Below, one piece after another: positions 2,953 to 17,680 of a DNA stretch of 64,000 nucleotides. The position numbers were made by a program, and so were the translations under genes. The stretch's first letter is position 1. Each line of letters starts with the position of its first letter. This DNA is from a virus (taxonomy: Duplodnaviria > Caudoviricetes). The notes under the pieces are model-generated. The model was given only the letters and a program-made list of their open reading frames with translations, did no database searches and had not been told where the DNA came from. The stretch covers positions 224,001 through 288,000 of the IMG/VR virus record IMGVR_UViG_3300021400_001148; one strand, given 5' to 3'.

Positions 2953-3645
2953 ATGAGACTTGTTGAGATAAAGAAAAACAATATAGGGACGGGACTTTTG
3001 GTTGAAAGTGACGGATTCATTTCGTTGCAGGATGAACATAACAAGCCCCTGCGTGAGGCTATAGGGGCCCCGGGGGAACTTAATCTTCCCAATCCGTTTG
3101 TGGTAAATGCGGTGTTTCAGAAATTCGGCATTGAAAACGCCAACGGAAGAATCTACCCAGAGGATGTACTCAAAAGAGAAGTTGAGAAGTATCTTCAAAA
3201 AGTCGCTGACAGAAGGGGCTACGGAGAAGCCAACCACCCGGATTCGAGTTCAATTGATACCGACCGCATCGCTATAAACATCATTGAACTCCACTGGGAA
3301 GGAAACACTCTTGTCGGTAAAATAGAGCTCCCGCTTTCCCCGGGGTTCAGAAAATATGGCATTATCACTTGCAAAGCTGACCTCGTGGCAAACTGGCTTC
3401 TTAACGGCCTCAAACTCGGCGTTTCTTCCAGAGGCGTGGGTTCCGTTGAACAGAAATACGGAAAATATATTGTCGGTGACGATTTTGAACTTATCTGCTG
3501 GGATGTGGTAACCGACCCGTCGACCCCGGGAGCATGGATTTCCGAAAATCCAGAAGAACTTCAGCAATATGTGGAATCAAAGGAAGATAAAGAAAATATT
3601 TTAACGGAAAAATTAAATAAATTCAAAGATTGGCTTTCAATATAA
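2953..3645 (+). CDS. prohead core protease (T4 gp21-like)
   Basis: FQ..G.ENANGRIYP, GEANHP, LGVSSRGVGS and WDVVTDPSTPGA motifs. Confidence 0.95.
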   Translation: MRLVEIKKNNIGTGLLVESDGFISLQDEHNKPLREAIGAPGELNLPNPFVVNAVFQKFGIENANGRIYPEDVLKREVEKYLQKVADRRGYGEANHPDSSSIDTDRIAINIIELHWEGNTLVGKIELPLSPGFRKYGIITCKADLVANWLLNGLKLGVSSRGVGSVEQKYGKYIVGDDFELICWDVVTDPSTPGAWISENPEELQQYVESKEDKENILTEKLNKFKDWLSI

Positions 3646-3736
3646 CAATTTTCACTTTTTCGTGTGAAAAAATGTTTTTTGCAAGTTAAACTATATTTAT
3701 TGATAAATAAATGGCAAAAAATAGCATTATTCAATT

Positions 3737-5077
3737 ATGAATAAAGAAAATAAAAATAGCATTTTGGACCCTGATATGCTCACAGAAGCAATCAAAGAAC
3801 AGACAAGAGATACTGTGTCTTCACTTCTTGGAAAAGAACTTAGGAATTATCTTAAGGAGTCCATTGAAGATGATGACGAGGATGAAAAGGCTCCTGCAAC
3901 TGATTCTAAAGAGGACAAAGCACCTGAGGCTGGAACTGAGGAAACAACTCCGGATGTTGCAGTTGATGATGCACAGGAAGGCGACGGTGAAGAGACCCCG
4001 GCTACTGATGAGCCCGAGGTTGATGAGCCCGAAAGCAGTGATGAATGGTCCGACTTTAAAGATTATGAGGTTGGGGATGGCGAATATGACTTGACTGGCG
4101 AAGAGGACATTGCAAAAGTTGCAAAGGTTTGGAAGGCCCTTTCAGACAGTGATGATGTTGTTGTCACACAGCAGGACGGCAAAATCGAACTGAAAGACAA
4201 GGAGACCGGTGCCGAGTATCTTATTGATACGAACGCTTCTGAGGGTGCAGAAGATGCTGCTCCGGAAGAGGAAAATGCAGAGGAGCCTCTTTTTGAGATT
4301 ACACTCAATGAAGATGGACTTGGTTACACCGACAATTACCAGAGCAAGAATCCGGTGGAAGGCGGTGAACCTTACGATGCACCAACCCCTAACGAGACAA
4401 GAAAATGGGATGCCGGTGCCCCCGAAGGAAAGAACAAGCCTTGGGCTGGTCCTTCCAAAACAGAGGGTGACCCTTATGTAAATGAGGAGGAGAACATCTT
4501 CGAGATTTCTCTTGGCACTGACGAGTGTGGAGATTTTAATGCTCCTATTGAGGAAGGTGCTGATACCAACTCCCAGAAAACTGTCAGAATGGCTAACAAA
4601 TCCAAGTATGGCCAGCACAGACCTGAAGGCCCCGCCGAAGTCAAGAAAGTTGATTCCGCCGACGGAAGCGTAAATGAGGCTATCTTGAAGAAACTTAAGA
4701 CGATTGAAGAAGAGAACAAGGTTCTTAAATCTTCTCTTGTTAAATTCAGAAAGGCCCTCAATGAGTCTGTTGTTGCCAATGCAAATCTTGGTAAGTTTGT
4801 AACTCTTGTTGTTGAAAACGCAACATCTACTGAGGAAAAACTTAATATCCTCAGCAGGTTCGACAAAGAGGCTAAGACTCTCGAGCAGAGCCAGTCACTC
4901 TTTGAGAGTATCAACAAAGAGCTCAAATCCGTCAAGAAAGGAAATGTTAATGCTGACAAACAAATGAGCATAAACGAATCTGCTGCAAATAACATCAACG
5001 AAAACAAAATTTACAAGAATGAAGATAATACCGTAAACGAGTCTCTCGACCTTATGCGTAGAATGAACATTCTGTAA
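3737..5077 (+). CDS. prohead scaffold/core protein (gp22-like)
   Basis: Very acidic protein with C-terminal coiled coil and many (I/L/V)NE sites; lies between protease and major capsid gene. Confidence 0.75.
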   Translation: MNKENKNSILDPDMLTEAIKEQTRDTVSSLLGKELRNYLKESIEDDDEDEKAPATDSKEDKAPEAGTEETTPDVAVDDAQEGDGEETPATDEPEVDEPESSDEWSDFKDYEVGDGEYDLTGEEDIAKVAKVWKALSDSDDVVVTQQDGKIELKDKETGAEYLIDTNASEGAEDAAPEEENAEEPLFEITLNEDGLGYTDNYQSKNPVEGGEPYDAPTPNETRKWDAGAPEGKNKPWAGPSKTEGDPYVNEEENIFEISLGTDECGDFNAPIEEGADTNSQKTVRMANKSKYGQHRPEGPAEVKKVDSADGSVNEAILKKLKTIEEENKVLKSSLVKFRKALNESVVANANLGKFVTLVVENATSTEEKLNILSRFDKEAKTLEQSQSLFESINKELKSVKKGNVNADKQMSINESAANNINENKIYKNEDNTVNESLDLMRRMNIL

Positions 5078-7123: not shown

Positions 7124-7185
7124 GTGCTTTTTAATAAACCATTTATTTTTGCACCATTAAAAGGGTATATAACGATATTTATTTG

Positions 7186-7193
7186 TATATTTG
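7186..7193 (+). promoter_or_regulatory. Bacteroidetes-type -7 promoter element
   Basis: TATATTTG (TAnnTTTG) 13 nt before ATG 7207; same element at 17042(+), 62861(+), 32858-32865(-), 45432-45439(-). Confidence 0.6.
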
Positions 7194-7206
7194 CAAAAAG
7201 AGAATT

Positions 7207-8901
7207 ATGCTGAAAACAGAAGAATTGATTGCGGACTATCTTTCAGGAAATGGTGTTGAATTTTTATGCCGGAAATATCATTTGGGAAAATTGAAGGTTA
7301 AAGATATTTTAAAAAAGAGCGATGTTCCCATGAAAACTAGAGGAGGACAAAGTAAAAAAGAGACATTTATTGTCCCTCATTGGTCTATTTTGAAATATAA
7401 AGAGGTGCCAGGAAAACATTATGTGGCATCTTCAAAAGATGGAAATTTAACTACTCATGACTATTTGAACAAATCCGGCATTCTTACATCATACATAAAA
7501 AAGACATACGGAAAAGAGTCAACGCTTTATGAGCGGCGAAAGTATTACATGAAAACCGGGAACTACTGGTGGGAACAATGGTTTAATATAATTCTTGCTG
7601 ATAATACTGTAACAAAAAAATGTCCATACTGTGATTGGGAGACAGTTGATTTGGAAAATAAAAGTGGGGCCTTTGCTATTCACCTTTTAAAGACACATGG
7701 GTTAAGTGTGAATGAATATCTCGAAAAAAATCCAGAGGATAAACAATACTTTTCTAATGAAGTAAAAAAAAATGAAAAAGAAAAACTCCTCGAAGATAAT
7801 CGAAATTTTGTCTTTTGCCCTATTTGCGGGGAAAAAATGGAAAAAATAACCCCCCAGCACATTTTTTACAAGCATCATTTGAATTTTATTGATTTTCGTA
7901 ATAAGTATCCAAATGCCAAAGTACTTTCCGATAATATGTATGATGAGACAATAAGGTCTGCCAAGGTCGGAAATCTCACTGTTTCGAAAAAAAGATTCAT
8001 ATCAAAATATGAACGAGAAATACAAGACTTTTTAAAGACAAATGGCGTAAAATTCATGGCTAACAGGCAAATTTTAGATGGGAGAGAGATTGATTTACTT
8101 ATTGAGGAAAAAAAAGTTGGAATTGAATTTGATGGGTTAAGGTTTCATACCGAATGGTTTGGGAAAAAAAATCACGGTTACCATTTAGAGAAAACAAAAA
8201 AATGTAATGAACACGGCTATGGGCTTATTCATATTTTTGAAGATGAATATGTAAATCATCGAGAAATTGTCTATAGTAAAATCTCGCACGCTTTAGGCCT
8301 TGACTTTAATAAACTAAAAATCGGGGCAAGGAAGTGCACAGTGAGGGAGATACAAAAGTCTCTTGCAGAAAAATTTCTAGAAAAGTTTCACATACAGGGA
8401 TTTTCAAGCTCATCACTTTATCTTGGTGCATTTTACAAAGACGAACTTGTTGGGGTCATGACTTTTAAACATGGGAATTTAAAAAATTATTGTTGGGAGT
8501 TGACAAGGTTTGCAACTAACAACAAATATATCTACCAAGGTCTTGGTAGTAAAATGTTTTCTTTCTTTGTTAAAAAAGAGTCGCCTGATATGGTAGTTTC
8601 ATTCGCTGACCGTAGGTGGACTATTAACCCTAATGAAAATCTATATACTAAAATGGGATTCACACTCGATTCAATAAACCCGCCGGATTACAAATACTAT
8701 AATGATAGGGTGGATAGATTTAAAAGGGTTCACAAAATGTTTTTCAGTAAAACTAAACTATGTAAAAAATATGGGTTTCCACCCTCTATGACAGAAACAG
8801 AAATGGCAAAAGCCCTTGGATATGACAGAATATGGGATTGTGGGTTGTTCAAATATGTTTGGAAATCCCCTGATATCACACAAGAAAACCACCCGGCGTA
8901 G
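7207..8901 (+). CDS. Hef-like free-standing homing endonuclease (Zn fingers, PD-(D/E)xK/DUF559-like nuclease, GNAT-like C-terminus)
   Basis: CPYC...H...H and CPIC...H fingers; EIDL...GIEFDG..FH; RFA...GLGSK, SFADRRW, RIWDCG; AT-rich relative to neighbours. Confidence 0.75.
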   Translation: MLKTEELIADYLSGNGVEFLCRKYHLGKLKVKDILKKSDVPMKTRGGQSKKETFIVPHWSILKYKEVPGKHYVASSKDGNLTTHDYLNKSGILTSYIKKTYGKESTLYERRKYYMKTGNYWWEQWFNIILADNTVTKKCPYCDWETVDLENKSGAFAIHLLKTHGLSVNEYLEKNPEDKQYFSNEVKKNEKEKLLEDNRNFVFCPICGEKMEKITPQHIFYKHHLNFIDFRNKYPNAKVLSDNMYDETIRSAKVGNLTVSKKRFISKYEREIQDFLKTNGVKFMANRQILDGREIDLLIEEKKVGIEFDGLRFHTEWFGKKNHGYHLEKTKKCNEHGYGLIHIFEDEYVNHREIVYSKISHALGLDFNKLKIGARKCTVREIQKSLAEKFLEKFHIQGFSSSSLYLGAFYKDELVGVMTFKHGNLKNYCWELTRFATNNKYIYQGLGSKMFSFFVKKESPDMVVSFADRRWTINPNENLYTKMGFTLDSINPPDYKYYNDRVDRFKRVHKMFFSKTKLCKKYGFPPSMTETEMAKALGYDRIWDCGLFKYVWKSPDITQENHPA

Positions 8902-15597: not shown

Positions 15598-15623
15598 AAA
15601 AAGGTGGTATTTTACCACCTTTT
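15596..15623. terminator. bidirectional terminator adjoining the IS1595 insertion site
   Basis: aaaaaaaggtggta-ttt-taccacctttt. Confidence 0.8.
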
Positions 15624-15752
15624 ATTTTGGGAACGATATACTACTTTACACCAATAATCGTGTAAATATTTGAAGTCCAGCGCAAATAACGCTGGACTAT
15701 TTGTAAGATTCCGCTAGTTTTCAGGTATAGATGTGTAGAAAGTACCTGAACT

Positions 15753-16694
15753 ATGAGACTTGAACTTGAACATTTTGACTCCCTTATCTTCCTAGTCAGC
15801 CATTTCAATAGCTACAAACGTTGCCGTGACTTCATTACCAAGCAGCGTTGGGGTAAGGTGGTTGTCTGCCCGCACTGCGGCTCCGTGCATGTTTACACAT
15901 GTAGCAACGGTGATAATCAGTTCAAGTGTGCCGATTGTCACAAGCGATTCTCCTGTCTTGTAGGCACCATCTTCGAAAATACCAAACTGCCCTTGCAGAA
16001 ATGGTTTATGGCTATGTATCTTATCAGTAGCCATAAGAAGGGGATTTCCTCCCATCAGCTTGGACGTGACATCCACGTCACGCAGAAGACTGCATGGTAT
16101 ATTCTCCATAAAGTTCGTACTCTGTTTGCACAGTACGATACTACCGTCCTTTACGGTGAGGTGGAAATGGACGAAATGTACCTTGGTGGACGTGAAACCA
16201 ATAAGCACGAATCCAAGAAAACAGAAGGAACGCAGGGACGTTCCACCAAGACTAAGACTCCCATCTTCGGTATGGTGGCAAGAGAAGGCGAAGCCCGTGC
16301 TCTTGTCGTAAAGGACACCAAGGCTGCTACGCTTTTGCCCATCATCAAACAGTTCGTTGCTGACAATGCTCATATCTTTACGGACGAGCTCAGTTCGTAT
16401 GCAGGTTTGTCTGGTGAAGGATACAAGCACGGCATCATCCACCACGGCGAAAAGGAATATTCTAAGGACGGTATCACCACCAACTCCATCGAAGGTTTTT
16501 GGGCTCATTTCAAGCGCACGGTGTTTGGTATCTATCACTTCGTGAGCAAGGAATACCTTCAGCAGTATATCAACGAATCCGTGTACCGTTACAATACAAG
16601 AAAAGCGAACGAATCCGTCCGCTTTGCCGATATGTTATCCAAGTGTATTGGAGTATGCTCCTATGAAGACGTTAAGTCGCTGAAGGTGGCTTAA
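15753..16694 (+). CDS. IS1595-family DDE transposase
   Basis: CPHC..C..C Zn ribbon, GTIFE.TKL, EMDE.Y.GG, TDE and NSIEGFW motifs. Confidence 0.95.
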   Translation: MRLELEHFDSLIFLVSHFNSYKRCRDFITKQRWGKVVVCPHCGSVHVYTCSNGDNQFKCADCHKRFSCLVGTIFENTKLPLQKWFMAMYLISSHKKGISSHQLGRDIHVTQKTAWYILHKVRTLFAQYDTTVLYGEVEMDEMYLGGRETNKHESKKTEGTQGRSTKTKTPIFGMVAREGEARALVVKDTKAATLLPIIKQFVADNAHIFTDELSSYAGLSGEGYKHGIIHHGEKEYSKDGITTNSIEGFWAHFKRTVFGIYHFVSKEYLQQYINESVYRYNTRKANESVRFADMLSKCIGVCSYEDVKSLKVA

Positions 16695-17005
16695 TCACTA
16701 AGCGTGCTTGCTTCTTGTCTAACTCTATCTGCCCATTGCTTTGCTTTGATAAACCAATTGTCCTCACTATTCGTTCCGTTCATGGCGAGCGAGGATAATT
16801 TCCTTGCAGCCTTTTCTATTATTCGGAGTAACAACAAAGAATCATCACACTCATCAATGAGGGACATTATTTGTCTCTCATATGCAAAGAATTCCGCATT
16901 CCCATTTTCTGTATTAGGATACCCCTCATTCAGCGTCTTTTTTATTGCCCCCGCAATAACCTTGCGGAGTTGTTGTTCATTGAGCTTTATTGTATTCTTC
17001 TTCAT
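16691..17005 (-). CDS. IS passenger protein with capsid-targeting-like peptide (alternative start 17089)
   Basis: MKKNTIKLNEQQLRKVIAGAIKKTLNE; late motif at 17235-17242 inside the element. Confidence 0.65.
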   Translation of the reverse strand: MKKNTIKLNEQQLRKVIAGAIKKTLNEGYPNTENGNAEFFAYERQIMSLIDECDDSLLLLRIIEKAARKLSSLAMNGTNSEDNWFIKAKQWADRVRQEASTLSD

Positions 17006-17055
17006 ATTCTTGTTTGATTTTGATTCGTTAGTTTTATTCTGTATATTTGCATCCG

Positions 17056-17235
17056 AAGGTGTATTAGCGTCAAGTGAAGCAGTATCCATAGGAAGGCGTG
17101 TATTTCCAAAGGATGAACTACCGTCTGTACTGTCAGGGACTTTGATAGCGCTAATTACCTTATGGGTGAATCCGTTTAATCACCAAACAAAAGAACTCCG
17201 TTCTCCCCGTAGTCCTTCGCTGCGGGGTTCTTTTT
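17056..17235 (+). ncRNA. candidate structured small RNA inside IS1595
   Basis: TTTG(17019)-N19-TATATTTG(17042) promoter; 17056-17069 pairs with 17149-17161; nested inner stems; terminator ccccgtag/ctgcgggg plus T run. Confidence 0.55.
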
Positions 17236-17296
17236 ATAAATATGCCTTATTCTCGAAAAGAGTCAAGAGATAGTGTAAACTAGTATATCGTTCCCT

Positions 17297-17680
17297 TTAT
17301 TTTATATATATAGCCAAATCACTGGCAATTGGCACCTTAAGTAGACCCTCCGGATAATCAACCCCATCCTCGGTCAACCCCCCGAGGAAATTTATGTTGA
17401 ACATACCAATGAACTTTCCCCTTTCGTTAGTGTCCCGTTTTTTCCAAGTATACTGTATAATATATTTCTCTTCACAGCCACCGTCCTCTACTTCAAGTAT
17501 TTCACACTTGGCGTTCGAAATTTTAAGGATGTCCGTGTCGGCGTTCCTCATTGAAAAAGTAACATCCGCGTTCTGTATTGCGTTGTAAAACTTATTGAAG
17601 GAATACCTCCCGTCGTTGATGAGTTCCATTCTTAGAACTGGAAGTACTGAGCCTTCGTTTATGAAAAATTCCTGTTCCAT
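17297..17680 (-). CDS. BppU N-terminal-like beta-sandwich structural protein
   Basis: F.I.EGS.LP.L, Y.W...DT...G.F.G.F.I pattern; late motif at about 17698. Confidence 0.55.
   Translation of the reverse strand: MEQEFFINEGSVLPVLRMELINDGRYSFNKFYNAIQNADVTFSMRNADTDILKISNAKCEILEVEDGGCEEKYIIQYTWKKRDTNERGKFIGMFNINFLGGLTEDGVDYPEGLLKVPIASDLAIYIK

Follow-up and report, generated by a model that had tools for sequence, protein, structure and literature searches.

A predicted 180-nt RNA unit inside a phage-borne IS1595 element, joined by deletion from parts of two antisense-like modules

Between the transposase gene and the right end of an IS1595 element in a phage genome lies a stretch of about 180 nt that the preliminary description had read as one small RNA, made early by the host polymerase from its own promoter, folded into a rod, ended by an intrinsic terminator and antisense to the leader of a late cargo gene. 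The question is whether this stretch is one RNA at all, and whether such an RNA would serve the transposase, silence a gene or do neither. The window analyzed here (64,000 nucleotides of DNA) is part of a complete phage of 354.8 kb. The flagged unit lies inside a complete IS1595 element, with transposase, terminal inverted repeats (TIRs) and a perfect 8-bp target-site duplication (TSD) all present. The features are as follows (window positions).

15621-15628, no strand: left TSD, 8 bp, same sequence as 17296-17303
15629-15651, plus: left TIR of the IS1595 element; 22 of 23 positions match the right TIR, and relatives share these ends
15753-16694, plus: IS1595 DDE transposase, 313 aa (PF12762, E 9e-47; PF12760, zinc ribbon)
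16691-17005, minus: 104-aa cargo ORF with an N-terminal helical tag resembling the start of the C-terminal part of LPD3 fusions
17006-17161, minus: start-less remnant of the linker frame of an LPD3 gene, still open and in frame with the cargo
17019-17049, plus: Bacteroidetes primary-sigma promoter (-33 TTTG, -7 TAnnTTTG), antisense to the LPD3/cargo gene
17056-17161, plus: rod-shaped 5' domain of a predicted antisense RNA; outer-stem pair probabilities above 0.9, homologs 85-93% identical
17161-17162, no strand: junction of a 683-bp deletion, from the alignment with L337-L340, without microhomology
17162-17179, plus: five last sense codons and stop codon of a 25-aa peptide gene whose 5' part is deleted
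17165-17184, plus: hairpin over the peptide stop codon; L011 and L021 have similar hairpins
17205-17235, plus: intrinsic terminator of the peptide gene, pyrimidine-rich loop, pair probabilities 0.8-0.95
17235-17242, minus: putative phage late motif TATTTATA, at the same place in all five IS-borne cassettes
17273-17295, minus: right TIR, matching the left TIR
17296-17303, no strand: right TSD, copy of 15621-15628

IS1595 relatives with the same ends carry differing passengers. Contig L012 holds two IS1595 transposase copies (5-763 and 3001-3930) within 3 kb. Homologs of the 104-aa cargo occur in runs of tag-bearing ORFs in L199-L201 (4001-5992) and L193; those of L199-L201 adjoin a transposase remnant. 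Elsewhere in the window (7183-8901), a 572-aa protein encoded beside the terminase gene gives weak zinc-finger, restriction-endonuclease-like and Mom/GNAT-like matches.

All parts of the consensus promoter were found: TTTG at 17019-17022, TATATTTG at 17042-17049 and a 19-base spacer between them. TAnnTTTG is the Bacteroides primary-sigma consensus (PMC7366714). The 10-mer TGTATATTTG is the main host-type promoter of the phage, with 68 genome copies against 1.7 expected, mostly directly ahead of genes (genome G000). In 11 of the 68 copies an ATG begins five bases past the motif, which suggests many leaderless mRNAs in G000 and puts the transcription start at about 17054-17056, next to the first stem base at 17056, as had been proposed. 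For comparison, 3.7% of 5' UTRs in B. thetaiotaomicron are shorter than 10 nt (PMC7366714). The promoter stands at the matching position in L326, L327 and L337.

The fold of 17056-17235 has a z-score of -3.0. The long outer stem (17056-17069 with 17149-17161) is predicted as first drawn, with pair probabilities above 0.9; pairing halfway along the rod is uncertain (0.2-0.4). Two of the nested helices, tcaa/ttga and cagta/tactg, are invariant in homologs and belong to the consensus fold; the other two, atcc/ggat and ggaa/ttcc, lack support, being less stable than an alternative fold, and G17092 is A in both homologs. The 3' hairpin is present at 17165-17184, and so is the terminator at 17205-17235, which folds better on the plus than on the minus strand and is abutted by the opposing late motif. 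For the rod alone z is -2.5, which 8 of 120 random genome windows (about 7%) also reach, and its minus strand folds too (z -2.1). A comparison of three rods over 37 pairs gave 2 compensatory, 7 consistent and 2 broken pairs, so that 9 of 11 varying pairs are kept, two of them through a double change. The covariation is suggestive at most: with only three distinct rod sequences it was not significant (86 of 500 shuffles; p about 0.07-0.1). Base pairs are retained better on the plus than on the minus strand, G-U-type changes suit the plus strand, and the rod loop is invariant among the three rods.

No covariance model of Rfam matched at the gathering score; searches at gathering and E-value thresholds, with 6S, SRP, riboswitch and Bacteroidetes motifs included, gave nothing meaningful beyond chance terminator-like matches, and annotated phage and plasmid collections gave no match. 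Several further identities were tried and set aside. Key motifs of tmRNA, SRP, 6S, the THF, SAM and yybP riboswitches and attC are absent by eye and have no Rfam support. The rod is not recognizable as a degenerate paralog of the peptide cassette described below or of L022a (p 0.33-0.82; 0.03, uncorrected, for L191), it has no complementarity to the peptide leader as an antitoxin of that type would, small plus-strand ORFs within it are not conserved in L326, and an attenuator would lack a conserved downstream gene.

That the unit is one RNA did not survive comparison with related sequences. The 3' part is found alone beside other IS1595 elements. In sequencing runs X3 and X8 the match to the window breaks precisely at 17161|17162, each side continuing into foreign sequence, and what follows the rod there is LPD3 coding sequence. 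An intact relative is present on four contigs (L337-L340), where 683 extra bases lie exactly between 17161 and 17162; the window is 93% identical to this element over 16977-17161 and 98% over 17162-17302. The 683 bases encode the LPD3 N-terminal domain and codons 1-20 of the 25-aa ORF, and they also contain a late motif, a hairpin, a further host promoter, a leader and AGGAGG. The event was a deletion, since a start-less frame was kept on one side of the junction and a stop codon on the other. The remnant frame at 17006-17161 is 52% identical to P0196 (residues 143-194) and near-identical to the linker of P0197 and P0199, and 17162-17179 agrees at 98% with the 3' end of the undeleted peptide gene in L337. 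The junction shows no microhomology and is identical in the JGI, Logan and ENA assemblies of the phage, sources that probably share one study. Judged from these alignments, the passenger region of the window arose when an L337-like element lost 683 bp, and with them the LPD3 domain and the greater part of the peptide gene. The span 17056-17235 crosses the junction and is not one conserved RNA; there is very little doubt that it is a chimera of two unrelated parts. The flagged RNA is a one-off chimeric relic, a local accident, and not a new transposon RNA. The two parent modules, called A and B below, are the more informative objects.

Module A is, from its sequence, a late-promoter gene for an LPD3 domain, a disordered linker and a tagged C-terminal part, with a host-sigma promoter opposite the end of the linker that is directed through the rod toward the LPD3 coding region. 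The rod and its promoter recur at 85% identity in two Bacteroidales genomes, in 3-kb host loci without a transposase. In one of these, a 218-aa gene has the rod antisense to its 3' part; homologs of the encoded protein are fusions of about 300 aa in which a linker nearly equal to the minus-strand frame of the window is followed by the cargo tag. In L327 (1628-2308; genome G576) an Abi_2-like gene flanked by dprA and a regulator gene has taken the place of most of the LPD3 gene, and the promoter and rod of G576 are 100% identical to those of G647 despite this swap. The linker under the rod is modeled as disordered (pLDDT <50). When L337 is compared with L330, third codon positions agree at 38% in the LPD3 domain and at 88% in the rod, and synonymous changes number 41 of 71 in the domain versus 3 of 25 in the rod (p=6e-5); second codon positions are the least conserved in the rod, at only 70%. 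Such low synonymous change implies a constraint on the rod bases other than the protein, unless there was recent exchange. Conservation begins at the promoter and ends a few codons beyond the rod.

The promoter has also left a mark in the protein, because its reverse complement must encode Ala, then Lys or Asn, then Val, Ile or Leu. This A[KN][VIL] imprint stands at the promoter spot in 19 of 22 family proteins (18 by script, one by alignment), a count read from the proteins and not from the underlying codons, against a background of 0.004 per position, and it persists across proteins of 27-50% identity. The end of the linker is a module boundary, as in some strains (P0203, P0206, P0208) the fusion is broken into two ORFs at the imprint.

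The LPD3 domain is modeled with a pLDDT of 91 and matches the LPD3-cluster model of the Atlas (TM 0.79, 136 residues, rmsd 2.6); the best Pfam match to PF18798 (E 0.002) is below the cut-off. Its top PDB matches are CdiA-CT, a toxin-antitoxin toxin, BrnT and colicin D (Z 4.0-5.5), namely 6cp9 at Z 5.5 and rmsd 3.6 over 93 residues, BrnT at Z 5.4 and colicin D at Z 4.0, all RNase matches being below Z 8; Foldseek gave no E below 0.001. By these weak matches of a model, the domain may have a BECR/RelE-like RNase fold and is a candidate RNase, and the protein is probably toxic.

Module B would be a host-sigma gene with a structured leader, AGGAGG, 21-25 codons, a hairpin and a terminator. Strong Shine-Dalgarno (SD) sequences are rare in the Bacteroides phylum. 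Five intact members were found (L337, L011, the second cassette of L022, L191 and L190); they share the core W-x3-VLDLM-x-RMG, and the frame is conserved with synonymous codon changes. In the predicted folds the SD region is mostly paired in four of the five, as is the AUG in four of five. With a charge of +3 to +4, a mean hydrophobicity of about 0 and a hydrophobic moment of 0.64-0.72 (three members), the peptides are cationic and amphipathic and have no transmembrane run. No family in Rfam, Pfam or NCBIfam matched the peptide at threshold, a literature search for its motif found no paper, and a search of about 700 Bacteroidales genomes recovered it from the two seed genomes only, other matches being at control levels.

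In every IS-borne copy the late motif abuts the terminator on the opposite strand. About 260 bases beyond this motif, L337, L011 and L022 have a hairpin followed by a T-run, and in these three a second late motif serves the cargo; in L337 and L011 there is no ORF between the late motif and the far hairpin. A late antisense RNA overlapping the whole peptide gene is predicted from this arrangement in the intact copies. The window copy keeps only the last peptide codons and has no intact small ORF with a ribosome-binding site, and TATTTATA at 17235-17242 is the sole putative late motif remaining for its cargo. A TTGACT hexamer lies 17-18 bases upstream of this motif (17243-17272, minus); L011 has TTGACA, and L191 has no such hexamer. 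In L191 (4215-6178) the peptide cassette and the phage late motif are borne by an IS1595 element of another subgroup, in a Cryptobacteroides genome, with 35% transposase identity and different TIRs. The L190 gene (205-279, minus) sits directly behind a cluster of Vsr-like, HindVP endonuclease and C5-methylase genes; no late motif, host promoter or antisense promoter/terminator was seen in its vicinity. In L022 (4613-4858 and 5543-5738) and L021 (4349-4593) the promoter region is duplicated and is followed by two kinds of cassette: one encodes an intact 21-aa peptide, and the other shares the leader start and the 3' module but has no intact family ORF. Loose 3' patterns in viral contigs were discarded as ordinary bidirectional terminators. 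A 23/24 match to the L011 3' module at G000:176438-176461 is inside a coding frame and probably due to chance.

Some RNA data bear on the parent arrangement. A metatranscriptome contig of X3 has its start at about 17059 and continues for 87 bases beyond the rod, which suggests that the U-rich tail of the rod is not a strong terminator. A second X3 contig extends from the late motif (end 17241) back to 197 bases beyond the junction; at L337 spacing its far end would lie about 60 bases upstream of the peptide gene start, beside the antisense terminator. These contigs are a weak hint; they come from one study at a depth of about 3, are unstranded and represent the intact type, not the window chimera. 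Runs X1 and X2 cover the 3' end of the cargo and not 17056-17235, and missing cover of this kind proves nothing.

The reading that joins these observations, two modules fused by deletion and antisense silencing in the parent, is given a probability of about 0.6. In the parent element, the host polymerase would make the rod RNA early in infection or while the element sits in a host chromosome. The rod RNA would pair with the LPD3 mRNA and silence an RNase-fold protein, probably a toxic one, for as long as late transcripts do not outnumber it. Module B would mirror module A, with a late antisense RNA directed against a host-sigma peptide gene. The deletion would then have joined the promoter and rod of A to the final codons and terminator of B. 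The window chimera of 180 nt is probably still transcribed to its borrowed terminator, and it overlaps the whole 5' leader of the late mRNA of the 104-aa remnant; as the LPD3 target is lost, it would at most damp that mRNA. The proposal of an antisense RNA to the late cargo therefore keeps its plausibility for the promoter and rod, which are conserved at the nucleotide level, and loses its natural target in this copy. An antisense function of the rod RNA in the parent is somewhat favored over its absence. High rod identity through recent recombination could count against the account.

The best-surviving alternative, still rather unlikely, is that the chimera is an inert scar: the rod would be constrained as part of the sense mRNA, through its stability, through pausing or through interdomain processing, or would owe its identity to recent gene conversion, and antisense transcription would be incidental. 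The ordinary z-score of the rod among random windows, the folding of its minus strand and the non-significant covariation all suit it. It fits poorly with a promoter imprint kept across such divergent proteins, with conservation bounded by the promoter and a few codons past the rod, and with changes of G-U type that suit the plus strand. Less probable again is a trans-acting sRNA or a protein-binding antitoxin of type III/AbiF kind, binding the LPD3 or Abi_2 nuclease instead of base-pairing to the mRNA. That the rod is kept at 100% beside the Abi_2 gene, although its complementarity to the neighbor is lost there, speaks for it, as does the apparent conservation of structure and not of complementarity alone; against it, repeats are absent from the region, RNA and nuclease gene are on opposite strands, and G576 may be a recent gene replacement that left a remnant.

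A cofactor or guide of the transposase, suggested by the position within the TIRs and the recurrence of parts in or beside several IS1595 elements, can practically be dismissed because the distribution of rod and cassette does not track the transposase: a transposase-based collection of 21 distinct related elements includes no rod and a single 3' cassette, L202, whose transposase is 98% identical and which is complete with TIRs and TSD, has neither, orientation relative to the transposase varies, and each part is also found where there is no transposase (L190, L326). No paper on an IS1595 ncRNA was found in the literature search.

Neither module reaches the threshold of any family in Rfam, Pfam or NCBIfam, and neither appears in the literature found; by their sequences, the parents look like two undescribed cis-antisense or type I-like gene-silencing modules. 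The dual coding of promoter and rod in LPD3 fusions suggests how a late phage effector that is probably toxic can travel through host chromosomes on a mobile element, the A[KN][VIL] imprint offers a protein-level way to find such antisense promoters, and the strong-SD family of 21-25 aa peptides is placed both on IS1595 elements and beside a restriction-modification operon. A tentative generalization, doubtful as it stands, is that Bacteroidales jumbo phages and their cargo transposons have built-in early/late antisense switches, in which a host-sigma promoter and structured RNA in a linker silence LPD3 RNase-fold late effectors in uninfected or early cells, and a late antisense RNA shuts off an SD-led peptide. 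If true, the rod would amount to an RNA antitoxin against a virion-type nuclease, its timing set by whichever polymerase is active.

Among known systems, IS110 bridge RNAs and IS605 omega RNAs are structured, lie inside the element ends and track their enzyme; the rod shares the structure and the location but does not track the transposase. Type III and AbiF RNA antitoxins are encoded on the strand of the toxin gene and are often repeated, whereas the rod has an opposite-strand promoter and no repeat family in its region. Passenger-carrying IS1595 elements have a zinc-ribbon DDE transposase, TIRs of about 23 bp, an 8-bp TSD and variable passengers; the difference here is that passengers are wired to phage late and host promoters, with antisense pairs included. 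AapA/IsoA and Fst/RNAII are type I toxin-antitoxin loci, which module B resembles in its stand-alone small ORF, structured leader, mostly paired SD and AUG (predicted) and fully overlapping predicted antisense RNA; it differs in that the peptide has no transmembrane run and no family match and the antisense RNA would come from a putative phage late motif, and in the window copy the ORF is lost. Putative type I pairs of small ORF and antisense RNA are reported from B. thetaiotaomicron (PMC7366714). LPD3 is listed as of unknown function among the phage polyvalent-protein domains, and the passages on LPD3 and PBECR in that source mention no antisense control (PMC5512222). The domain described here is like LPD3/PBECR domains in its fold (TM 0.79), helix-plus-sheet core, invariant His and probable virion-associated context; here it is solo, IS-borne and fused to a tag. 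The rod also resembles Bacteroides cis-antisense RNAs of the DonS type, which have a primary-sigma TAnnTTTG promoter, are about 100-200 nt long and structured, and overlap a gene on the opposite strand; B. thetaiotaomicron has 78 cis-antisense RNAs (PMC7366714). DonS-type RNAs face susC genes, whereas the promoter of the rod lies in the coding linker of an IS-borne late LPD3 gene of a phage; the rod likewise has its own promoter opposite, and overlapping, a gene.
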